Shown here: positions 18,303 to 54,513 of the stretch, piece by piece
Numbering within the stretch: position 1 is the stretch's first letter
Layout: the number at the start of each line of letters is the position of its first letter
Assembly: GCA_026986575.1 (NCBI GenBank)
Contig: JALSOH010000006.1
Location: forward strand, 352,001 to 416,000
Length of the DNA stretch: 64,000 nt
Direction of reading: 5' to 3'
Source of the DNA: Thermoproteota archaeon
GTDB lineage: Archaea; Korarchaeota; Korarchaeia; Korarchaeales; Korarchaeaceae
The notes under the pieces: generated by a model
Database searches by the model: none
What the model was told of the DNA's origin: nothing
Seen by the model: only the letters and a program-made list of their open reading frames with translations
Translations under genes and position numbers: made by a program

Positions 18303-19210
18303 TCGCGTCCCCTCCCAATGAGCTCCCTGACTGTCATCCCCTTCCTGCTGAGGTATGACAAAAGGCCCTCACTTATCTCACTGAAGACCTCCAGCCCTTT
18401 AGTCATCACGGCGGTACCCACTCCCACGGCCTTCGCACCCGCCAGCAACATTTCGGCAGCATCCCTCCAGGTTTCAACCCCTCCAGTACCTATCACATCT
18501 CCTAAATGAGATATCTCGTACACGGCTCGGACCGCGATGGGCCTTATCGCTGGCCCGCTCAGGCCTCCCACCCTGTTGGAGAGCACCGGAGACATGGCCT
18601 CCACATCTATGTACATGGCCCTCACGGTATTGATGGCTGTGAGCCCATCGGCCCCGGCATCGATGGCCGCCTTAGCGAGGGAAGCTATGTCCGGAACCAT
18701 GGGGGTGAGCTTCACTAGAAGGGGAATCTTCACACTCCTCCTGACTTCCCTCACTAGCTCTTCAATGAGCTCTGGAGAGGAACCAATTTCCAATCCATGC
18801 TCTCTAACGTGAGGGCAAGAGGCGTTTATCTCTATCGCATCAGCCCCGGCATCTTGGAGCCTCCCAGCGACGTGAGCTACCTCCTCGGGACTCCCTCCGC
18901 CAGCGCTCGCGATGACGGGAATGGTCATGTGGGACTTGGCCTCCCTCAGCTCTCTCTCGAACTCGTCGACTCCAGGATTTGGAAGTCCCATCGCGTTAAT
19001 CAACCCGAAAGGGAGCTCGACGACCACAGGATTATTGTAACCCTTCGTAGGCTCTGGCAGGATGGTCTTGGTCGTCACGGCACCAGCACCTGCCTCTTCT
19101 GCCCTCCTGAGCAGCGAAGCTGCATTTCCCAACACGCCAGATGCGAGGACTAGAGGATTCCTCAGCTTGAGGCCGACCACCTCAGTCTCCAGCAGCCCGC
19201 TTACCTCCAC
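18296..19210 (-). CDS. pyrD: Dihydroorotate dehydrogenase, family 1 catalytic subunit
   Basis: NPLVLASG, INAMGLPNPG, EINASCPH, VKLTP, AINT, GGLSG. Confidence 0.93.
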   Translation of the reverse strand: MEVSGLLETEVVGLKLRNPLVLASGVLGNAASLLRRAEEAGAGAVTTKTILPEPTKGYNNPVVVELPFGLINAMGLPNPGVDEFERELREAKSHMTIPVIASAGGGSPEEVAHVAGRLQDAGADAIEINASCPHVREHGLEIGSSPELIEELVREVRRSVKIPLLVKLTPMVPDIASLAKAAIDAGADGLTAINTVRAMYIDVEAMSPVLSNRVGGLSGPAIRPIAVRAVYEISHLGDVIGTGGVETWRDAAEMLLAGAKAVGVGTAVMTKGLEVFSEISEGLLSYLSRKGMTVRELIGRGRDC

Positions 19211-19685
19211 CTTTATCCGACCTCTCCAGCCTGAAGAGGAGGGAGAACTTTTTAGTAGTGCGGTAAGTCCTCTTTCTGCCTTCCTTGATTTCTCTTATTA
19301 GGCCCAGCTGGATGAGCCTTCTCAAGTGGTCCCTGGCATTTCTCCCCCTGACGCGCACCACCTCGCTCAGGCTCACCGGTTCGTTGGCAGCTATCAGTGC
19401 CAGAGTCCTCATTTCAGATTTGGAGAGCAGTTTCTGTGGGAAGAGATGAGCCACGTGCTCCTCGTATTCCCTCTTGAGGACCATGATCCAACCCCCCTCG
19501 ACCCTCTCCACCCAGAACGGGTGATCCTTCAGTTCCTCGTTGATCTCCGCGATAGCCTTCTCCACGGCCGGTCCGGATAGGCCTGTCAGCCTCTTTATCT
19601 CGCCCTCCGTCATCACGTCCCCTGACGCGAAGAGAGCCGCCTCCAGTAACCTCTTCGCCCTCTCCCACGATTCAGGCCCTTTCAT
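19182..19685 (-). CDS. scpB: Condensin subunit ScpB (KITE)
   Basis: LEAALFA, LSKSEMRTLALIA..EPV...EVVRVRG, YRTTKKF; directly after scpA and smc. Confidence 0.9.
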   Translation of the reverse strand: MKGPESWERAKRLLEAALFASGDVMTEGEIKRLTGLSGPAVEKAIAEINEELKDHPFWVERVEGGWIMVLKREYEEHVAHLFPQKLLSKSEMRTLALIAANEPVSLSEVVRVRGRNARDHLRRLIQLGLIREIKEGRKRTYRTTKKFSLLFRLERSDKGGGKRAAGD

Positions 19686-20196
19686 TTGACAGCACCACGT
19701 AGATCTCGTCGAAGGGCCTCTCCTGAACGAGCTCCACTTCCCCGTCCTTCTCCATGAAGAGCAACGATATGAGTGTCGGAACCAGCTCCTCTGAGGAGTT
19801 AACGAGCTCCCTTAGGGGGACCATCCTCTTACCCCTTCTCCTCAGGGAGATTATCTTCTCCTTCAACTTTTTGATTTCGCTAACCAAATCCCACTTCGTG
19901 ATCAGGGAGAGGCTAAGGGAACTGGCCATGCTTCTGATCTTTCTCTCGACCCACCTGAAGGCATCGAGTATTTCTCCCTTGATGGGATACCTCTTGGGAG
20001 TCCTCCAAGTCCTCGGCACGATCACCCCTCTCTCCAACCTTCTCGACCTGTAAATCCTCGCGGCGCTTTCCTCTGGTGGCCTGAGGTAATTCATCACATC
20101 TTCTCTGAGCTCTCTAGCAAGACGGAAGATCCTCCTGCCCGCTCTAGCTATGTCCCTTGTCTCTAGAAACTCCTTCCAGACTTCTTCTGGCCTCAT
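19672..20196 (-). CDS. scpA: Short kleisin ScpA
   Basis: C-terminal kleisin winged helix LISLLFM..DGEVELVQERPFDEIYV; lies between smc and scpB. Confidence 0.8.
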   Translation of the reverse strand: MRPEEVWKEFLETRDIARAGRRIFRLARELREDVMNYLRPPEESAARIYRSRRLERGVIVPRTWRTPKRYPIKGEILDAFRWVERKIRSMASSLSLSLITKWDLVSEIKKLKEKIISLRRRGKRMVPLRELVNSSEELVPTLISLLFMEKDGEVELVQERPFDEIYVVLSNERA

Positions 20197-22499
20197 GAAG
20201 CAGCCTCCTTCGATACAGCCACGATCTTCGACTCACCGTTCCTCATGGTCACCCCTATCAGGTGATCGGCCTCCTCCAGCGTCTCCTTCTTCAGGGAGAT
20301 TGCTATGACTTGGGCCCTTTTCGATAGGTCCTTGAGGGCCCTAGCGTACCTCTTACAGTTCACACCGTCCAGCATGGCGTCAGCCTCATCGAACACGTAG
20401 AGGGAGGAAGGTCTGAGCTTTTGAGCCGCGAGAATGAATGCCAAGGCACTGAGAGATTTCTCTCCACCGGAAAGGGAATCTATGGTGACCGGCTTCTTGT
20501 TGGGAAGACTTACCCTCATCTCAAGTCCCTTCTCTGTGAGCTTGAGCTCCCCCCCACCTCCCTCAAAGAGCAGCTTTATCTGCTCATCGAACGCCACCGA
20601 CAGCCTCCGAAGCGTCTCTTCTATGATCCCTTCTCTTTCCCTGTCAAGTCTCTCTATGAGCTCCTCTATTTCTCTCTTCCTCTCGGCGAACTCTTGATAC
20701 TTCCCCCTGATTTCATTGAAGGCCTTCTTTCGAATCTCGTATTCCTCTTGAGCCTTGGGATTCACTGGTCCCATGAGCCTCAGCCTAGTTTGTATGGAAG
20801 CCACTTCGGAGAACGGGTCAGGGACGGAGAGCGGTTCAACCTGCGCTAACTTCATCAACTCGGATTCAAGTACCTTCATCTTCTCCTTGAGCCTCCCCTT
20901 CTCCTCGCTTATCTCCTCCAGCTTGGAGAGGTACATCTGTCTCCTGTTGAGAGCTTCTTGGTAGGCCCTCCTGAGTGTTGACACCTCCCTCCTGAGAGCC
21001 TCTAGGGCCTCCAGATTAGGATCCTCCTTAGGCAGACCCCCCAGCTCCTCCTTCTTATTAGCAGCATACTTTTTGAGGCTCTTCAACTCCTCTTCGATCT
21101 TCTTCACCTCCTCTCTCAGTTTGTTGACCCTCTCGATGTCCCTCTCCGGCTTCCCAGCTAGGAGGCTTCCCTCCCTCTCCACGATCTCCCCCTTCAGCGT
21201 CACGAATTTCGCCCTGCCAATGAGATCTCTAGTGATGGCGTCCAAGTCGTCCACGAGGATCGCGTTGAAGACCAATTTAGCGATGACCTCGAACTCCTCA
21301 TCGTATCGGAGGAAGCGGTAAAGGGGGCCCAAGGTGCCCTCTACCTCAGGTAGGTCCCTTACCCTGATGACATCCAAGGGGATTATCCTGAAACGGCCCT
21401 TGACGTTCCTCAATGCCTTAGCTATCCTCTTAGCCCCCTCCAAGTCTTTGACGACGATGTCGCCCAACCTGCCTCCCCCAACAGCCAGATAGGGGATTTC
21501 ATAGCCTTCCATGGGAGTTACCAGCTGAGACACAACGCCGAGAAAGGAGGGGTCGCTTCTGACGACCTCCGGTACATCTCTCACCCTAGCTAGAGCGTTT
21601 AAGGCGTCTCTCTGGGCCTCTAAAGCCCTCTCCAGGGTCTCTATTTGGTGAGACAGGGCCCTCAATTCCGCCTCTATCTGCTTCCTTCTCCTGACCGGGG
21701 AGTCCTTCACTAGACCTTCGATCCGCCTAAGTTCCTTCTCCCTCTCCTCGAGTTGAGTCCTCAAGGAATCTATGTCTGAGAAATCCTCCTCCATGTATGC
21801 CTTATCTAGAGATTCCAGTTTCTCTTTGACCTCTTCGAGTTGAACCATCAGCAGGTACTTCTTTACCCTTCTTAGCCTCTCCTCCAACTCGTTTCTCTCC
21901 TGAAGGGCCTTTACCTCCTTCTCGGCTCTCCTCAACTCCTTTTCCCTCTCCTTCATCAGCACCTCCATCTCTCTCAGGGACTGGTCGACCTCTCTCAGCT
22001 CTTCTAGGGCTTTTCCCTTCTTCTCATCGTACTCAGCCACTCCGCTTATCTCCTCCAGCAGCTTAGCCCTCTCCTTGGGGGACATCTCGACTATTGAAGT
22101 GATGTCCCCTTGGGTCACGAACGTGTACCTGTCGACGACGAAACCCATGTCCGCGAGCAGATCCATGACCTCCGCGGCGCTTTTCCTTCTTCCGTTCACC
22201 TTGTAGACGCTTTCCCCGTTGGGTCTAATCTCTCTACTCAAGCTTATCCTCTCGGAGGAATTCCTTATGAGGAGGCTGACCTGAGCCGCGTTAGACCCCT
22301 TCCTGACTAGGTTCTCTATCTTGGAAGCTCTTAGCCTCCTAGCTCTCCATCCCATGACGAAGGCTATGGCGTCCAATATGTTGCTTTTACCCGAGCCATT
22401 GGGACCCGTGATGGCAACTAGACCAGTGGGTAGAGGTATCGTAGCCCTTCGAAACGACTTGAAGTTGACCATGTGGATGCCGTCGACAGCTGCTTTCAT
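20193..22499 (-). CDS. smc: Chromosome segregation protein Smc, unusually short (768 aa)
   Basis: NFKSF, GPNGSGKS, Q-loop TQGDI, hinge (GVVSQL, GRFRIIPLD, G-x6-G-x3-AG), LSGGEKS, FDEADAMLD. Confidence 0.92.
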   Translation of the reverse strand: MKAAVDGIHMVNFKSFRRATIPLPTGLVAITGPNGSGKSNILDAIAFVMGWRARRLRASKIENLVRKGSNAAQVSLLIRNSSERISLSREIRPNGESVYKVNGRRKSAAEVMDLLADMGFVVDRYTFVTQGDITSIVEMSPKERAKLLEEISGVAEYDEKKGKALEELREVDQSLREMEVLMKEREKELRRAEKEVKALQERNELEERLRRVKKYLLMVQLEEVKEKLESLDKAYMEEDFSDIDSLRTQLEEREKELRRIEGLVKDSPVRRRKQIEAELRALSHQIETLERALEAQRDALNALARVRDVPEVVRSDPSFLGVVSQLVTPMEGYEIPYLAVGGGRLGDIVVKDLEGAKRIAKALRNVKGRFRIIPLDVIRVRDLPEVEGTLGPLYRFLRYDEEFEVIAKLVFNAILVDDLDAITRDLIGRAKFVTLKGEIVEREGSLLAGKPERDIERVNKLREEVKKIEEELKSLKKYAANKKEELGGLPKEDPNLEALEALRREVSTLRRAYQEALNRRQMYLSKLEEISEEKGRLKEKMKVLESELMKLAQVEPLSVPDPFSEVASIQTRLRLMGPVNPKAQEEYEIRKKAFNEIRGKYQEFAERKREIEELIERLDREREGIIEETLRRLSVAFDEQIKLLFEGGGGELKLTEKGLEMRVSLPNKKPVTIDSLSGGEKSLSALAFILAAQKLRPSSLYVFDEADAMLDGVNCKRYARALKDLSKRAQVIAISLKKETLEEADHLIGVTMRNGESKIVAVSKEAAS

Positions 22500-22532
22500 T
22501 CATCAGCGTCTTATAGGCTAGGAATTTAACCT

Positions 22533-23474
22533 TTACGGGGGAATCAGTGCGTATGCGACTGAGAAGGCAGAAAGGTAGGCAACTCCCGACTCAATGGAGG
22601 ATCCCAAGGGCTTGGCGGAGATTAGTGTGGAGATCAGCCCAGCTAATAGGAGGGTCAGGGGTAGTTCCGCGGGGATCTGCAACGGGTACAGCAGGGGGGA
22701 GGTGACGACCTTCATCAGGACCACGTTAGACAGACCGATGGAAGATGAGATAACTAAGGACATCGCTTTTATGGACCTCATGCGAGCTCTCCATGCCGAT
22801 GTTATGCGCTTGAACTCCCTCAACATGGTAGAGGTCCTCCTCATCACCTTAGCTAAGGTCCTCCTATCGGACATCACCCGCAGGACATTCGCCCAAGGAG
22901 GGAGCTCCAAATCATTGAGATCGATGTCCAATACGAGGGGTTCATAGAGACCGAGATGCCTCAGAGCGTAAATCCTACCACCGCCCTTCTCTAGGGTCGA
23001 TGCTATGTAGTCCGCCGCTGCCGGGTCGTCAGATATACATCCTAGGGAAAGCCCTGGGATCAATGGGTACACCAAGGCTAGGGGGATGAGGTGAAAGGGC
23101 TCTATCCTCATCCCTCCCAGGGAGAGGGCTACTGCTATCCCCACTGAGAGGGCCATCCCCAAGGTCAAGGAGAGGTACATCCATCTCTCTCGCGCTTGAG
23201 CATCTGCTTCCAAGAGCTGGGAAATGAGAGTGAGTGAGGACTTGAGCGATTCATCTTTATCCCCACCCTCCTCAATCCCAGACAGTAGAGATCCAGCCTC
23301 GCCCATTTTCTTAGCTAGCGCACTACCGGCCCTCTCGCCTTCTACGGCTACCTCCTCATAGGCCGAGATGGCCCTAAGTCCTAGGGCGGGAGAGGCGCTC
23401 CAACCTAAGACCAGCCTCTGTACTAGGTCAGCTCTCCTCAAGTAGTCCCTTAATCCTCCTATAGACCTCTTCAT
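22533..23474 (-). CDS. Multi-TM membrane protein, probable T2SS-F/TadC-like pilus platform
   Basis: Alternating helical cytoplasmic and TM segments; overlaps the 3' end of a secretion ATPase gene. Confidence 0.55.
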   Translation of the reverse strand: MKRSIGGLRDYLRRADLVQRLVLGWSASPALGLRAISAYEEVAVEGERAGSALAKKMGEAGSLLSGIEEGGDKDESLKSSLTLISQLLEADAQARERWMYLSLTLGMALSVGIAVALSLGGMRIEPFHLIPLALVYPLIPGLSLGCISDDPAAADYIASTLEKGGGRIYALRHLGLYEPLVLDIDLNDLELPPWANVLRVMSDRRTLAKVMRRTSTMLREFKRITSAWRARMRSIKAMSLVISSSIGLSNVVLMKVVTSPLLYPLQIPAELPLTLLLAGLISTLISAKPLGSSIESGVAYLSAFSVAYALIPP

Positions 23475-24801
23475 TGGTCTCGGCGCCCTCCAGCCTCTTC
23501 ACATGCATTAACCAATCAGTCGATGGGCTCCCTGGATCATCCCACCCTCCATCTACCCAGCGCCTCATCTCAACTACCTTCTTTTCCTCCATCCTCACCG
23601 CCAAGGTCCCCTCAGGAAGGTTCACCCCCCAAGAGGTCCATTTCTGGATAAGACCCCGATAATCCTTGGCGTGGGTGGTCGCCATCACCTTCAATCCACT
23701 GAAGGAAGTGAGATCTAGGGCTTCAGCATGCTCCCTTCCCAAAATTTCTCCCAGAAACACCAAGTCCGGATTCCTGTGGAGAAGGAACTTGATGAAATCC
23801 AGCTTGCCCGATGTTATCTCATATGGGGTGTGGTGCATCCCGTACCTAGTGAGGTCCTCTATCTCCCTCACCTCCTCGACGCTCACTATCCTCCAGTGCC
23901 TGGGAAGGCTCGCGAGCAGGGCGTTGGATAGCGTAGTCTTACCGACCCCCGTCCTGCCGAAGATCAATACCGGATCGCCTCTGCCCAGCGAGTCCAACAT
24001 GAGGGCCGCTTCATACCCGGTCAGGGATCCTAGTGAAATGAGACGGGGTAAGCTCAGCCGCGACATGGCGCTCAGATTCCTCACATCCACAGCCCCCATC
24101 GATGCTGGAGGGAAGTCTAAGGCCATCCTGAAGTGGTACTCGCCCAACGAGAGATCGACTTCGTTGAGAGGAGAGCTGAAGTCCACACCGGCGTTCACAT
24201 CAGCCTCCACGAATGTCATCAGCCTGCTTACCTCTCCTTGGTCCATCAGGTAGTTCTCCACTACTATCCTACCCAGTTCTACGTGGTCCAGATAAAGAGG
24301 ACCATTGAAGTGAGCGTATGCCTCAGTAACATCTGGCGCCATGGCTATGGCCAGAAATGGCCAAAGCTTCGTGGATCTAACTGAAGACTCCAGTGCTAAT
24401 TCCTCATCTTCCAAATCCAATTCCCTTAAGATCTCATTAGCTCTGTCCACTCTGAGCTGGAGGGACTTCCATATCAGGTCCCCTTGGGATCTGTAGTCGT
24501 GGGAGTATATTCCCTTAACCATCATGGAAAGGATTATGGAAGCCACTTGCCTACCGGTACGTGATGTTAGCGGATGAGCCACGGCTTTCTTGCCCCTAAT
24601 CTCGAGCGATCCTCCAAGGAAAGGTATATCCCAAGATATGAGCTGTCCTACGACTTCAATAGGTCTGCATTTCCTCCTGAATATCCTCTGGCGGAAACCC
24701 AGTTTCATACCGAGGGATGCTTTTAGGGCGTGCTTGCCGCACCTAGCTATGAGGATAGAGGCCAGCTCCAGTGAACGCTCCTCTCCCACTCCCGATAGCA
24801 T
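23428..24801 (-). CDS. Type II/IV secretion (VirB11/TadA-like) ATPase, divergent
   Basis: GRTGVGKTT Walker A, SVEEVREI Asp box, NPDLVFLGEI Walker B, ATTHA His box. Confidence 0.8.
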   Translation of the reverse strand: MLSGVGEERSLELASILIARCGKHALKASLGMKLGFRQRIFRRKCRPIEVVGQLISWDIPFLGGSLEIRGKKAVAHPLTSRTGRQVASIILSMMVKGIYSHDYRSQGDLIWKSLQLRVDRANEILRELDLEDEELALESSVRSTKLWPFLAIAMAPDVTEAYAHFNGPLYLDHVELGRIVVENYLMDQGEVSRLMTFVEADVNAGVDFSSPLNEVDLSLGEYHFRMALDFPPASMGAVDVRNLSAMSRLSLPRLISLGSLTGYEAALMLDSLGRGDPVLIFGRTGVGKTTLSNALLASLPRHWRIVSVEEVREIEDLTRYGMHHTPYEITSGKLDFIKFLLHRNPDLVFLGEILGREHAEALDLTSFSGLKVMATTHAKDYRGLIQKWTSWGVNLPEGTLAVRMEEKKVVEMRRWVDGGWDDPGSPSTDWLMHVKRLEGAETNEEVYRRIKGLLEES

Positions 24802-50886: not shown

Positions 50887-52257
50887 TTAGAGAGGAACGT
50901 CGCACAGGTATCTCAACATAAACAGAGAGAGCAGCAAGATGCAAGTATCTATCAGCAGGAAGGCAGAGTACAGCGCACCTACATCCACCACGAACCCGTT
51001 CAGTGATTCCAAGAAGACCATGATGAACACGGACTCGGCCACTACCATGATGGGGGTGAGCTTTAACCACCCAATGGACTGGAAGGTCCACATGGATTCT
51101 CTCTTCGGTAGCAGCCTGCATATCAGGAGATTATACAGGGAGGAGAAGGATATCACGGTAAAGATGAATACTGTGAGGTAGTAGACCAAGTTCCCTCCTG
51201 AGATCAGTGAAAATACGACGATAGGGATGTTTATCGCGAGACATATGATCACGTAAAGGGCGTACTTCGACAGGGAGACCTGTAACTTGGTTAAAGGCAG
51301 GATATAGAGGAGGGAAGAGCCAGAGCCCTCCAAGGAGTACAACCAGATTGTGAAGAGAGGGAGTATCACACCCAGCTCCAAGAGGGAAGCCAAGGTCAGG
51401 TTGAGCAACGCCGCGTTTGAACTTACTTCAGAAGTGTAGATCGTGATGATAGAGTGTGGAAATACGGAAAATAGTATTAAAGCCAGTATCCAAGGTCTCC
51501 TCCTGATCAAGATCAACTCCTTCTTTAGGAGAGTCATGTGAGGCAATTCTGCGTACTCATTCCCGGCAGGAGCGACATTAGGAAACTCATGCAATCTCCC
51601 TATTACTCTACCGAAGGCCATTGCAGTTAAGTAGAAATATCCTATCAGAAGTATACTTCTCTCTAAGATAGACGAGCTAAAGAGAATCGTAAGAAGAGGA
51701 CCTAAATACGTAAAAAGAATAATAGAACCTACCCAACTTAAGGTGATTAACCACGGAACTCTCCTAAATGAAATTTCCACGCAGGCCATTCCCAGTATAG
51801 TACCTAATACAGCTAGAAAACTACTAAGCCATACTAGGATGAAGATAGCATTAAACCGGAAGTCGAGGAGAGTATAGTAGGGGGGGATTAAGAGCGGGGA
51901 GAGGGCAAGACCACCCCAAAGTAAATGCGCAATAATTACTGCTGCAATGACAGTTCTAGGCCTAATAGGCAACATCAGTATTGGCATCAGAGACTTAGTG
52001 TCCTTGATAGATCTGTAATTGATAATAGACAGTGTAAAGAACGAAAATATATAAACCAGTTGACTAACTTTAATGTAAGATTGAATACTATCTCCATCTC
52101 TAACCAATATTATGAGGAAGAAGGACATTATGATAGAGGCTATAAATAGCAAAATATTAGACAATAGAATCCTAACTAAACTAATAGAATTACCACTTCT
52201 ATAGCTTCCTTCGCGGATTATTATCAAAGCTATCCGGAGAGGCAGAGGAATTCTCAA
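50887..52257 (-). CDS. ABC-2-type exporter permease (multi-TM)
   Basis: About 12 TM helices; LLKKEL..IRRRP and EG...LLYILPLT motifs; aligns by eye with the permease at 62849. Confidence 0.75.
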   Translation of the reverse strand: MRIPLPLRIALIIIREGSYRSGNSISLVRILLSNILLFIASIIMSFFLIILVRDGDSIQSYIKVSQLVYIFSFFTLSIINYRSIKDTKSLMPILMLPIRPRTVIAAVIIAHLLWGGLALSPLLIPPYYTLLDFRFNAIFILVWLSSFLAVLGTILGMACVEISFRRVPWLITLSWVGSIILFTYLGPLLTILFSSSILERSILLIGYFYLTAMAFGRVIGRLHEFPNVAPAGNEYAELPHMTLLKKELILIRRRPWILALILFSVFPHSIITIYTSEVSSNAALLNLTLASLLELGVILPLFTIWLYSLEGSGSSLLYILPLTKLQVSLSKYALYVIICLAINIPIVVFSLISGGNLVYYLTVFIFTVISFSSLYNLLICRLLPKRESMWTFQSIGWLKLTPIMVVAESVFIMVFLESLNGFVVDVGALYSAFLLIDTCILLLSLFMLRYLCDVPL

Positions 52258-52359
52258 GGTTCCATACCCTAAAGATTTACTCGTCTACTTAAAAATTAAT
52301 GGACATTAGTATGACTTGCATTCATCATATCATGGCTGAATAATTTATTAGTTAAAAAG

Positions 52360-52986
52360 TTAATCCAATGTGAAAATAACAACGTTATATATATGGATAT
52401 ATAGCAAAATAGCTAAGGAAAAGATAGCTGAAGATGCACACCTTATATCGAATTTTCCGGATAATTTATATAAGGAACATAGCCAGAAAAAGAAAATTAT
52501 CAAGTCTATTGCTATAAACAGATAAGGGCTAATGATAAGATCAAATTCGGACCTCAATAATATAAAAAAAGAAGGTATTACAAATTCAATTAGTCTAAGT
52601 AGAAAGACCGAACTCTCTCCTATCTGAAGAAATATCAAATAAAATCCGAAGCTTAGGAGCGTGTCTCTTAATTTTATTGTATGTTCCTTACAGAAAGTCG
52701 TAATGGTTAAGTAAAATATCTCAGTAACAAGGAATAGGACGAATAAACTAGCTAACCCATGTGCAAGAAAACCTGCCGCGATCACTAAGAATAATCCTCC
52801 AAGAAAATTCTGAAGAAGCACCGTAAATTCTCTGAGGAGATACATTGTCAAACTTGTAGTATACAATAGAGATGAGATCAGTATAGTTGATAGTAGAATG
52901 ATAACCTTTCGATGAGGGCTAACATTATCTAGAAAAAGACAGAAACCCCAAACTCTATTCAATATCCTGATTACAAGGAATTTCAC
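52360..52986 (-). CDS. Yip1-like membrane protein
   Basis: 208 aa, 5-6 hydrophobic helices; divergent from the peptide gene; family call rests on topology and context. Confidence 0.5.
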   Translation of the reverse strand: MKFLVIRILNRVWGFCLFLDNVSPHRKVIILLSTILISSLLYTTSLTMYLLREFTVLLQNFLGGLFLVIAAGFLAHGLASLFVLFLVTEIFYLTITTFCKEHTIKLRDTLLSFGFYLIFLQIGESSVFLLRLIEFVIPSFFILLRSEFDLIISPYLFIAIDLIIFFFWLCSLYKLSGKFDIRCASSAIFSLAILLYIHIYNVVIFTLD

Positions 52987-53049
52987 AAGAATGCCTCCTT
53001 TAGACTCATAATACCATGTTCTCTGACCGGTGCGTTGATCTTAAGTAAA

Positions 53050-53060
53050 TTTTTATATAT
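53050..53060. promoter_or_regulatory. TATA box of the divergent island promoter
   Basis: TTTTTATATAT about 30 nt upstream of the peptide GTG, between divergent genes. Confidence 0.55.
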
Positions 53061-53090
53061 TTGCGCCCTAATTATAAATGTGGTGGTTCC

Positions 53091-53345
53091 GTGGATCAGA
53101 GGAAAATAGTTTCAGTAATCCTGATGTTGCAAATCATATTTCTTGCGGCGCCCTTTTGGATGAGCGGAAAAGCAGGAATGATATGGGGAGCTATAGCATA
53201 TCACGTCCATACACATTATCATAACCATCTAGCTTCGCACGTAGCTTTACATATGGCTATCACTCATATCATGATATACACCTTAGCAGGGTCTGGGTTT
53301 GGACCCATCGGAGCGTTAGCTGGCTTTCTAATAGGAATAGCATAA
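53091..53345 (+). CDS. Putative bacteriocin/archaeocin precursor peptide (84 aa, His-rich)
   Basis: GGTGG RBS plus GTG; leader-like MDQRK+hydrophobic stretch; core with 8 His and a Gly-rich hydrophobic end GSGFGPIGALAGFLIGIA; upstream of SpoIIM. Confidence 0.7.
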   Translation: MDQRKIVSVILMLQIIFLAAPFWMSGKAGMIWGAIAYHVHTHYHNHLASHVALHMAITHIMIYTLAGSGFGPIGALAGFLIGIA

Positions 53346-53385
53346 ACCTAATTCTCTAACATTTTTATATCTTAGGTGAGGAGAC

Positions 53386-53796
53386 ATGTTATCCAAAAAG
53401 CGAAATCTTGTTGGTATTATGATATTTTTCATACTCATGACAATTTTCTTCGGAGTCTTTTCATATCAGTTGTGGATCTCTGAACCGGAGGATTTCCTCT
53501 TATATTTCGCTGTAGGATTTACCTCTAGCATTCTTATATTCCTACTTTTCTCTGGAGATGTTGATCCTTTGGATATGTCTTGGAGGGGAATAGATGTAAA
53601 AGATAGGAGAACTCTCCTAAAGTATCTAATCTTAATAGGCCTAGTAGGTGCACTGCTAGGATCAGCACTCCCTCATGCTCTTGGATATCAGAATGAATTT
53701 CTGTATATAGCAGCTTGGTATACAGTAGGGCTGGGTGTAGCAGTTGCTTCGCTCTTGATATTGCCCATACTCAGCTATTTTCATAACAGAAAATAA
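53386..53796 (+). CDS. Small 4-TM membrane protein, candidate immunity protein
   Basis: GGTGAGGAG RBS; four hydrophobic helices, basic termini; directly after the peptide gene. Confidence 0.6.
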   Translation: MLSKKRNLVGIMIFFILMTIFFGVFSYQLWISEPEDFLLYFAVGFTSSILIFLLFSGDVDPLDMSWRGIDVKDRRTLLKYLILIGLVGALLGSALPHALGYQNEFLYIAAWYTVGLGVAVASLLILPILSYFHNRK

Positions 53797-53811
53797 AGTA
53801 GAAACACGGAG

Positions 53812-54435
53812 GTGGATGTTATAAATATCGGTGAAAAAGGTATTTGGATAGCAGCTCTTCTCCTGTATTTTGTGGGGTTCGGCTTGTCTCTTCTGGACAA
53901 CTCCACCCTGCAACATCCTACTACTCTCCGATGGAAATACATTGACTTAAAACTAAATCGCGAATATTATTTTATAATTACCTATGATTTTTTTAAAATT
54001 TGTCGAATGGATGACTACTCAAAAATTAAACTCATTTTGATAAACAATTTAGAGAGTGTTGTATTGACTGTGATGGGAGGAGTTGCTCTCTCGATACCGA
54101 CCGTCGTATCTACACTGTACAATGGATATCTTTTTGGCTCTTTTATCGGAGGTGCGCTTGCGAGTGGGCTAAGTTTAATCGAAATAATAAAACTAACTGT
54201 GTTTCATGGATTTATAGAGATAGCAGGATTCTTGATGGCGACTGTTGCAGGAATGCGTATCTCACTTTTATTAAAAGATTTATTGATATCATTACCTGAA
54301 GATCAAGATTTCTCTAAGAAGATGCGATTAAAAATTATAAGTATTATGAAACTCTTCCTATACTCTCTAATTTTTATTACTATAGCGGGATTGATAGAGG
54401 TGTACATCTCAATAGACCTAATCCTCTGCGGATAA
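53812..54435 (+). CDS. SpoIIM/DUF95-family membrane protein
   Basis: NN....L, NG...G, HGFIE, G..I and IAGLIEVYIS signature motifs. Confidence 0.85.
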   Translation: MDVINIGEKGIWIAALLLYFVGFGLSLLDNSTLQHPTTLRWKYIDLKLNREYYFIITYDFFKICRMDDYSKIKLILINNLESVVLTVMGGVALSIPTVVSTLYNGYLFGSFIGGALASGLSLIEIIKLTVFHGFIEIAGFLMATVAGMRISLLLKDLLISLPEDQDFSKKMRLKIISIMKLFLYSLIFITIAGLIEVYISIDLILCG

Positions 54436-54513
54436 CTCACCTATATTAATTTTAGGCAAATAATCAGGAGTTTCACTTACCTGCTATTTTGAAACAGCCA
54501 AATTGAGGCTGGA

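Follow-up and report, generated by a model that had tools for sequence, protein, structure and literature searches.

A short-armed Smc-kleisin operon in the Korarchaeota

Introduction

A 64,000-nucleotide (nt) stretch of a Korarchaeota genome (GenBank assembly GCA_026986575.1, contig JALSOH010000006.1, positions 352,001 to 416,000; the window in what follows) encodes a Smc protein of 768 amino acids (aa), a kleisin of 174 aa and a ScpB. Is such a small Smc a working condensin, a relative with a specialised task, or the remains of a longer gene? A first-pass annotation of the window took it to be a natural mini-SMC with arms of about half the usual length, and this is supported by an independent contig, by short Smc proteins in related genomes and by arm strands that are in register. 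As far as sequence can tell, the operon very probably encodes a functional short-armed Smc-kleisin complex, with or without ScpB, which is phylum-wide and the organism's sole condensin-type SMC. The arms of this Smc are ~184 residues per strand shorter than those of canonical Smc; the protein retains the ATPase head, the hinge and the joint region near the head, and ScpB is of normal size. Published studies are cited below for particular passages and data sheets.

The smc-scpA-scpB Operon

The list of open reading frames (ORFs) and direct reading of the junctions show three overlapping, co-directional ORFs on the minus strand, corresponding to smc, an scpA-like kleisin gene and scpB (Table 1). 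The smc stop and the kleisin start share the tetranucleotide ATGA, with GGAGG 8 nt 5' of the kleisin ATG, inside the end of smc (20197-20210, minus strand). The kleisin gene in turn overlaps scpB by 14 nt. The junctions, read directly, contain no frameshift and no internal stop, which bears out the earlier description of an overlapping operon without frameshift. Because in-frame stops directly precede the smc ATG, the smc ORF cannot be extended upstream. The 33-nt gap before that ATG (22500-22532, minus strand) includes TTAAAT ~27-30 nt upstream of it, a possible archaeal TATA box from which a leaderless transcript would start.

Table 1. Features of the smc-scpA-scpB operon (positions in the window; residues in the encoded protein).
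Feature	Position	Strand	Length or residues	Basis
smc	20193..22499	-	768 aa	ORF; Pfam SMC_N and SMC_hinge
Smc head, N-terminal half (Walker A, arginine finger, Q-loop)	22044..22499	-	aa 1-152	motif alignment; model, 3-152; 1xew_X on 6-167
N-terminal arm strand	21579..22043	-	aa 153-307, 155 residues	model helices, heptads, alignment columns
Hinge dimerisation domain (predicted)	21144..21578	-	aa 308-452	Pfam SMC_hinge; 1gxl_A, 4rsj_A, 3nwc_A; model
C-terminal arm strand, with joint-like interruptions	20691..21143	-	aa 453-603, 151 residues	model helices; 5xei_A
Smc head, C-terminal half (signature motif, Walker B, D-loop)	20196..20690	-	aa 604-768	motifs; 3kta_B on 619-767
scpA-like kleisin, N-terminally reduced	19672..20196	-	174 aa	hhalign; PDB profile matches; model and Foldseek
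Kleisin N-terminal helical hairpin	20083..20190	-	aa 3-38	helices 3-13 and 16-38, pLDDT 83-89
Kleisin central linker, low confidence, invariant Arg65	19981..20082	-	aa 39-72	pLDDT 44-61
Kleisin helix and C-terminal winged helix	19693..19980	-	aa 73-93 and 104-168	model, Foldseek
scpB (kite), ordinary size	19182..19685	-	167 aa	PF04079

The gene order and gene lengths are repeated in 16 of 16 other Korarchaeota loci with extracted ORFs (families f1 and f2), one of which (L012) ends before scpB; a chance arrangement is thereby excluded. Jeon et al. (2020; PMC7055376) likewise recorded all three genes in each of 3 Korarchaeota species and found smc next to scpA.

Head, Hinge and Arms of Smc

The Smc protein matches Pfam SMC_N over residues 6-757 (E 2.7e-56) and SMC_hinge over residues 318-421 (E 1.1e-15). 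Its best NCBIfam model is that of prokaryotic Smc, TIGR02169 (E 1.2e-143), matched in three pieces; the Rad50 and RecN models are matched at E 5.9e-34 and E 5.1e-14, respectively. Close database relatives (53-71% identical) are named Candidatus Korarchaeota or Korarchaeum. The Walker A, arginine finger, Q-loop, signature, Walker B and D-loop motifs all align with those of 24 long Smc proteins, and the H-loop position is a leucine, as it is in 14 of the 24.

An AlphaFold2 model built from a 42-sequence alignment has a mean predicted local distance difference test score (pLDDT) of 84.6. In it the head halves are formed by residues 1-154 and by the stretch from the end of the C-terminal arm to residue 768. 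Arm helices span residues 155-232, 243-264 and 269-303 on the N-terminal side, and 451-487, 495-550, 562-576 and 583 to about 620 on the C-terminal side, where they are separated by breaks at 488-494, 551-561 and 577-582. Between the arms lies a hinge of mixed alpha/beta fold (304-450). Foldseek matches to the model are SMC, cohesin and condensin chains, among them the Pyrococcus Smc head with joint (5xei), with a template modelling (TM) score of 0.69 on the target. The head-proximal part of the C-terminal arm aligns to the same structure (5xei_A), in which coiled coil and joint accompany the head; the head-proximal joint of Smc was defined by Diebold-Durand et al. (2017; PMC5526789). Pfam and structure matches thus place a hinge in the protein, and its dimerisation is predicted.

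Arm strands were measured between the same four alignment columns in all proteins (Table 2). The Korarchaeal means stay within 148.5-157.5 aa although the 12 sequences are as little as 32-38% identical. The deficit relative to canonical Smc, ~184 aa per strand, is twice the 91-aa period seen in the viability screen of Burmann et al. (2017).

Table 2. Lengths of Smc arm strands, in residues.
Proteins	n	N-terminal strand	C-terminal strand	Mean
Window Smc	1	155	151	153
Korarchaeota	12	148-162	149-157	148.5-157.5
Short DPANN Smc	10	158-174	155-176	156.5-172.5
Long Smc	24	317-347	313-350	320-345.5

A heptad scan of 17 Korarchaeal sequences detects periodicity on both strands, and the phase shifts close to the breaks of the model. 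A MAFFT alignment with Thermococcus Smc opens gaps of 49 and 121 (plus 7) residues in the N-terminal strand and of 121 and 59 residues in the C-terminal strand. Local matching to a hidden Markov model (HMM) of 59 long Smc proteins places residues 4-303 on model positions 3-316, residues 273-491 on 475-708, and residues 457-765 on 861-1174. By these ranges the protein retains its hinge and, with the joint region, the part of the arm nearest the head, and has lost approximately the distal half of each strand.

Each of the structural points of the first-pass annotation survived these comparisons. The head motifs are intact by alignment with the 24 long proteins. The N-terminal coiled coil, put at ~150 aa, has 155 residues on the common columns, and the hinge, put at ~318-450, agrees with both the model and the Pfam match; the helix and hinge boundaries of the model show that these two figures were right. 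Half-length arms were an accurate description (153 aa against a canonical 320-346 aa), and the two strands can be put in register: their lengths differ little (155 and 151 residues), both have heptad periodicity, and the breaks coincide with those of the model.

A Kleisin Reduced at its N-Terminus

A Pfam search with the 174-aa protein gave no match at E <= 0.01, and its 11 database relatives are unnamed or called "hypothetical", with no Pfam domain on record. It is, however, the only match in the genome to Pfam SMC_ScpA (PF02616), at 15.1 bits, under the gathering cut-off of 24.6. A profile of 15 Korarchaeal orthologues from families f1 and f2 aligned with five canonical archaeal ScpA proteins by hhalign (probability 98.5%, E 2.5e-15). 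The alignment does not begin until ScpA column 47, so that the N-terminal domain lacks its initial ~45 residues. The W-x-IDI columns of the DPWxIDI segment, invariant in all five canonical archaeal ScpA proteins, have no counterpart in the 15 Korarchaeal sequences. Against PDB profiles, the best matches were ScpA C-terminal domains (4i99_C, E 1.1e-10; 5xns_C, E 2.3e-10), followed by RAD21 C-termini (E 3.6e-4) and, weakly, by the Thermococcus ScpA N-terminal domain (6ivh, E 0.12).

The kleisin model has a mean pLDDT of 72.9. Residues 12-38 of its N-terminal hairpin align by hhalign with the long helix that follows the DPWxIDI segment in canonical ScpA, and the hairpin is presumed to be the helix that binds the Smc neck. 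R65 and W82, in the central region, are invariant in 19 sequences. The top three Foldseek matches are the C-terminal winged helices of ScpA (5xg3_C, 4i99_C and 5h66_C), with TM scores on the target of 0.79-0.80, a root-mean-square deviation of about 2 A and E values of 1.2e-3 to 1.8e-3. By these profile and model comparisons the protein is a true ScpA, whose winged helix is predicted to bind the Smc cap. The very short ScpA noted at the outset is confirmed at 174 aa and is due to N-terminal truncation: the N-terminal domain has lost its first two helices, and what remains is the long helix, followed by a short linker and the winged helix presumed to bind the cap. In Korarchaeota family f4 and in a DPANN genome, short Smc proteins stand beside kleisins with a full N-terminal domain (201 and 239 aa, respectively), which makes the truncation of the kleisin an event separate from the shortening of the arms.

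Integrity of the Genes and Purifying Selection

A protein so far under the length norm of its family, with a score under the curated cut-off and taken from a draft genome of 11 contigs, might have lost its middle by mis-assembly or recent deletion, and would then be an artefact or a decaying pseudogene. Separately assembled contigs of two runs, possibly the source of the assembly, show 0 differences over the 3318 bases of the operon. A contig from a different study covers all 3318 bases and the three genes with 208 substitutions and 0 gaps. Every complete Smc ORF of the other 16 Korarchaeota loci has the same length (758-787 aa), and these loci include two genomes assembled in 1 and 2 contigs. 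The two strands of the arm are shortened symmetrically, to 155 and 151 residues.

The ratio of nonsynonymous to synonymous substitution rates (dN/dS) was computed against two relatives ~93% identical in protein. It is 0.068 and 0.079 for smc as a whole, 0.031-0.048 for the heads, 0.041-0.115 for the arms and 0.11-0.12 for the hinge; the kleisin has 0.14-0.16 and ScpB 0.05-0.06. The arms therefore appear to be under purifying selection, and ScpB under strong purifying selection. Taken with the gapless contig and the constant length in relatives, this leaves practically no chance for an artefact or a pseudogene.

The genome (1.91 Mb) is 99.69% complete, and a search of it for a second Smc found none; the only other sizeable SMC-like ORF is Rad50-like and 965 aa long. 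All three ways in which the first-pass reading could have failed were followed up and went in its favour: the arm strands can be put in register, the independent contig speaks against an assembly deletion, and the relatives with complete ORFs do not have a full-length Smc.

Distribution of Short Smc Proteins

Thirty-two Korarchaeota genomes of at least 80% completeness were searched with a match threshold of E <= 1e-30. A short Smc was found in 27 of them, in uninterrupted open frames of 758-833 aa, so that the length distribution of orthologues, suggested earlier as a check, shows the short form to be phylum-wide. The complete Smc ORFs from 17 loci, in families f1, f2 and f4, are all 758-787 aa. 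One frame, in genome G029, has 954 aa and contains a mini-intein in the P-loop. No Smc of ~1150-1200 aa was found among the Korarchaeota genomes searched.

Short Smc proteins are also present in DPANN archaea. An 823-aa DPANN Smc clusters in the tree with proteins named Aenigmatarchaeota, and a full-length match to it was found in 117 of 121 sampled genomes of the phylum of G036. Nearly all complete open frames there have ~795-873 aa; two others have 924 and 1020 aa, and six have 1352-1398 aa with the pattern of a P-loop intein insertion (the match starts from residue 25 or 42). No Smc frame near 1150-1200 aa was found in these 121 genomes. In a second DPANN phylum, that of G040, the short form occurs in 8 of 10 genomes, and a protein named Nanohaloarchaea has 848 aa. 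The short arms are thus not peculiar to the genome of the window.

The same division by length appears in database searches. Among the best 120 matches of the first search, lengths are 758-799, 817-842 and 1116-1261 aa, with none between 842 and 1116 aa and one 632-aa entry named partial. Among the best 150 matches of a profile search of 1.84 billion representatives, 27 are single-stretch proteins of 739-873 aa and 6 are of the intein type; the other 117 have 943-1781 aa.

Two kinds of variant were seen alongside these proteins. Some short Smc genes (G029:C9:63009-65249 at locus L029, P0142 and P0135) have a P-loop intein right after the lysine-serine of Walker A; it is a mini-intein in P0142 (951 aa; Intein_splicing, E 5.3e-11) and a large intein with LAGLIDADG domains in P0135 (1361 aa). 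Intermediate Smc lengths occur in G167 and G168, of the phylum of G040 (1010 and 1103 aa), and at locus L034 of G039, where a Smc of 1028 aa fills the hinge columns with only ~78 residues. The intermediate lengths could be steps or variants in the reduction of arm or hinge.

One or Several Origins

Trees were computed from 497 head and hinge columns, with the arms excluded. A branch with support of 100/99, recovered in 100% of 200 bootstrap trees, separates the 12 Korarchaeal proteins from all the others. In the free trees the DPANN clade lies apart from the Korarchaeal clade and is nested, with weak branch support, among the long Smc proteins. The approximately unbiased (AU) test does not reject a grouping of all 22 short proteins in one clade. 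It gave p = 0.203 for 47 sequences, where the constraint cost 15 log-likelihood units, and p = 0.51 for 45 sequences, where the constrained tree scored 0.52 units above the free one; L037, with its long branch, and L034, with its aberrant hinge, had been removed from the smaller set.

Comparison with Known Systems

The operon shares with canonical Smc-ScpAB (that of B. subtilis, and Pyrococcus/Thermococcus Smc with structures 5XEI, 4I99, 5XNS and 4RSJ) the head motifs, the joint homology, the hinge, the C-terminal winged helix of the kleisin, ScpB and the gene order. It differs in arm length (~153 aa against 320-346 aa) and in the absence from its kleisin of the DPWxIDI segment, which canonical ScpA has in its first ~45 residues. 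Unlike the canonical proteins, its Smc and kleisin score under the curated cut-offs for Smc and ScpA. The short Smc proteins of Aenigmatarchaeota and of the other DPANN phylum have the same architecture and lack the same two arm blocks in alignment, but their arms are ~10-20 residues longer (156.5-172.5 aa), their identity to the Korarchaeal protein is 26-32%, and the DPANN kleisin, at 239 aa, keeps the full N-terminal domain.

The engineered Mini-Smc of B. subtilis has the same general design, with the hinge attached to a head-proximal arm. When B. subtilis Smc is resized, viability varies with a period of 91 aa (Burmann et al., 2017; PMC5344682), and the functional forms, according to the parts of that study used here, have arms of 253-267 aa or of 321 aa and above; the Korarchaeal ~153 aa is a natural state fixed across the phylum. 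The same study reports a main mode of natural arm lengths at 341 aa and a possible minor mode at 163 aa. For membership of the minor class, the two head-to-hinge linkers should average close to 163 aa, and the shorter strand should reach at least 75% of the longer. The window Smc, at 153 aa (155/151), lies near this class and about two 91-aa periods under the main mode; the boundaries used here put the long class ~5 aa under the 341-aa mode. No Korarchaeal or short-Smc row turned up among the sampled values of the published table of natural arm lengths. The short-arm length was statistically anticipated in 2017, and no description of a short-armed Korarchaeal or DPANN Smc was found in the literature searched.

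RecN and Rad50 have SMC-superfamily heads with other coiled-coil lengths, and neither has an SMC hinge or a kleisin operon. Eukaryotic Smc5/6 has arms shorter than those of condensin and cohesin, together with kite partners, as encoded in the window operon. Archaeal SMC5/6-related proteins of other Korarchaeota (~540-680 aa) have no hinge, whereas the window Smc has one and is 768 aa long; no SMC-like ORF of ~540-680 aa was matched in the window genome.

Condensin or Specialised SMC

Several findings weigh against a functional short-armed condensin. Smc scores 480.3 bits with TIGR02169, less than the curated equivalog cut-off of 729.4, and 423.9 bits with TIGR02168, less than the cut-off of 567.35 and in three separate stretches; for a full-length match these cut-offs imply arms of ~340 aa per strand. 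The predicted template modelling score of the Smc model is only 0.50, and confidence falls at the arm breaks. The MAFFT gaps adjoin the hinge, whereas by local HMM matching a stub of arm next to the hinge seems to be retained, so that the two alignments differ as to the exact segment of the arm that was lost. In B. subtilis, arms of 145, 150, 155, 160, 165 and 170 aa gave a colony area of 0.0 in all six sampled rows of the Smc data sheet, and in the Smc(Zh) sheet five of the six sampled at the same lengths gave 0.0 and one 0.004 (PMC5344682). The failure of these constructs implies that an arm of such length does not work in all contexts. In addition, no ScpA-ScpB binding was found in any pair tested from other archaea, according to the parts of Jeon et al. 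(2020; PMC7055376) used here, a result taken up below.

The distribution, too, has exceptions. Five of the 32 Korarchaeota genomes, 90-99% complete, gave no such Smc match with this query, which suggests that the complex is possibly dispensable in the lineage. One of the five is of the same genus (99% complete), two are of genus g3 and two of family f3. Genomes G017, G022, G046, G027 and G028 have only weaker SMC-like matches, mostly in open frames of 613-638 aa, which may be of the hinge-less SMC5/6-related type; the only match of G017 to the short Smc is a 185-aa fragment.

Could the protein be a real short-armed SMC that serves in a specialised role (repair-type, Smc5/6-like) or as a static, non-extruding DNA bridger rather than in chromosome folding? 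Shorter arms are a mark of Smc5/6, with a eukaryotic mode at 272 aa, and B. subtilis Smc with arms of such length loads at its own sites yet is non-functional (both from PMC5344682). Some Korarchaeota manage without this Smc, and Yoshinaga and Inagaki (2021; PMC8665677) put a Korarchaeota SMC homologue close to the base of the SMC5/6 clan. The sequence used in that study, as far as its sampled parts indicate, may however be the separate hinge-less protein of other Korarchaeota. The window protein is the only hinge-bearing Smc in its genome, its genes stand in the canonical smc-scpA-scpB order, and its best family is prokaryotic Smc by a wide difference in E value from Rad50. These points make a specialised SMC or static bridger quite improbable, and the operon is best read as that of a short-armed condensin.

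Association with ScpB

ScpB matches PF04079 over residues 13-156 (E 8.1e-34; a tandem winged-helix fold), and its TIGR00281 score is 72.3 bits, less than the cut-off of 89.2. Its size equals that of ScpB encoded beside long Smc genes (167 and 162 aa). Prediction of a complex of the kleisin with two ScpB chains gave a score of 0.55, against 0.00 for the best of three controls, with contact agreement between runs of at least 64% and a partner pLDDT of at least 65. Among 157 solved complexes, 116 reach the mark used for such predictions; among 215 mismatched pairs, 2 do. Passes at a score of 0.60 or under comprise only 18 of the solved complexes and both of these mismatched pairs. The prediction may also reflect likeness to known complexes, since bacterial ScpA-ScpB structures exist. 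The model lends weak support to predicted binding of ScpB to the kleisin.

The working complex may instead be binary, made of Smc and kleisin, with ScpB co-transcribed but not a stable subunit, as has been proposed for most archaea. The absence of archaeal ScpA-ScpB binding noted above was attributed to a short middle region of ScpA, 30 residues in a Korarchaeote (Jeon et al., 2020), and the linker of the window kleisin is only ~34 residues of low confidence. At the family f4 locus L030, no scpB adjoining scpA was seen. In the window, by contrast, scpB overlaps scpA by 14 nt, and it follows scpA in 15 of the 16 other f1/f2 loci, the 16th being L012. The strong purifying selection on ScpB, the invariant R65 and W82 of the central kleisin region and, weakly, the predicted complex point the same way. 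A binary complex is accordingly the less favoured arrangement, doubtful but a serious possibility.

Proposed Mechanism

By analogy with characterised complexes, two chains of the short-armed Smc would dimerise at the hinge, and one kleisin would link the two heads, attached to one at its neck and to the other at its cap. Closure by the kleisin would yield a ring with arms of ~21-23 nm instead of ~47 nm, on a scale of ~47 nm for a 344-aa arm (PMC5344682). ATP-driven engagement and release of the heads would then move DNA through the ring. An arm that had lost about two ~91-aa periods would keep head and hinge in their usual geometry; the lumen would be smaller, and the step presumably too.

Neighbourhood in the Window

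Directly upstream of smc and co-directional with it (22533-24801, minus strand) are genes for a T2SSE-type secretion or pilus ATPase (457 aa, E 4.6e-12) and for a membrane protein of 313 aa that faintly matches T2SSF. Downstream of the operon, Pfam identifies pyrD, a gene of the metallo-beta-lactamase fold and tmcA. The pilus genes and pyrD hold the same positions in related loci. Further along the window lies a low-GC island (52300-54450), with a G+C fraction of 0.353 in 52001-54000 against about 0.50-0.57 elsewhere. It has three small ORFs, of 208, 94 and 136 aa, with no significant Pfam match, and a gene for a 207-aa SpoIIM-like membrane protein, and a rubrerythrin gene then follows. No Rfam family and no tRNA were found in the 64-kb window.

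Significance

The operon exposes a blind spot of annotation, in that Smc falls under the curated equivalog cut-offs and the kleisin, without a Pfam match, is filed as hypothetical. The genomes searched are small (0.4-2.9 Mb), and the known cells are ultrathin or nano-sized, as in the "ultrathin filamentous cells" described in part of a preprint (bioRxiv 10.1101/2023.09.28.559970). A tentative and rather unlikely extension of the finding is that the loss of about two periods yields a discrete, fully functional state of Smc, fixed in no fewer than three phyla of archaea (the Korarchaeota, the Aenigmatarchaeota and a second DPANN phylum), in which arm length is tuned to the geometry of nucleoid or cell, steps are proportionally smaller, and the f1/f2 kleisin is co-adapted. 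If that were true, the f1/f2 kleisin would have adapted by shedding half of its neck-binding domain.

In segment-capture and loop-extrusion models the arms are active and their length matters, and these models have so far been tested mainly with engineered B. subtilis proteins. A natural complex with ~153-aa arms and a minimal kleisin, under purifying selection, would represent an evolved solution at that length. With about 770 + 174 + 167 residues per protomer set, it would be a compact target for the structure of a whole Smc-kleisin ring, and it may offer a direct route to asking whether step size scales with arm length.

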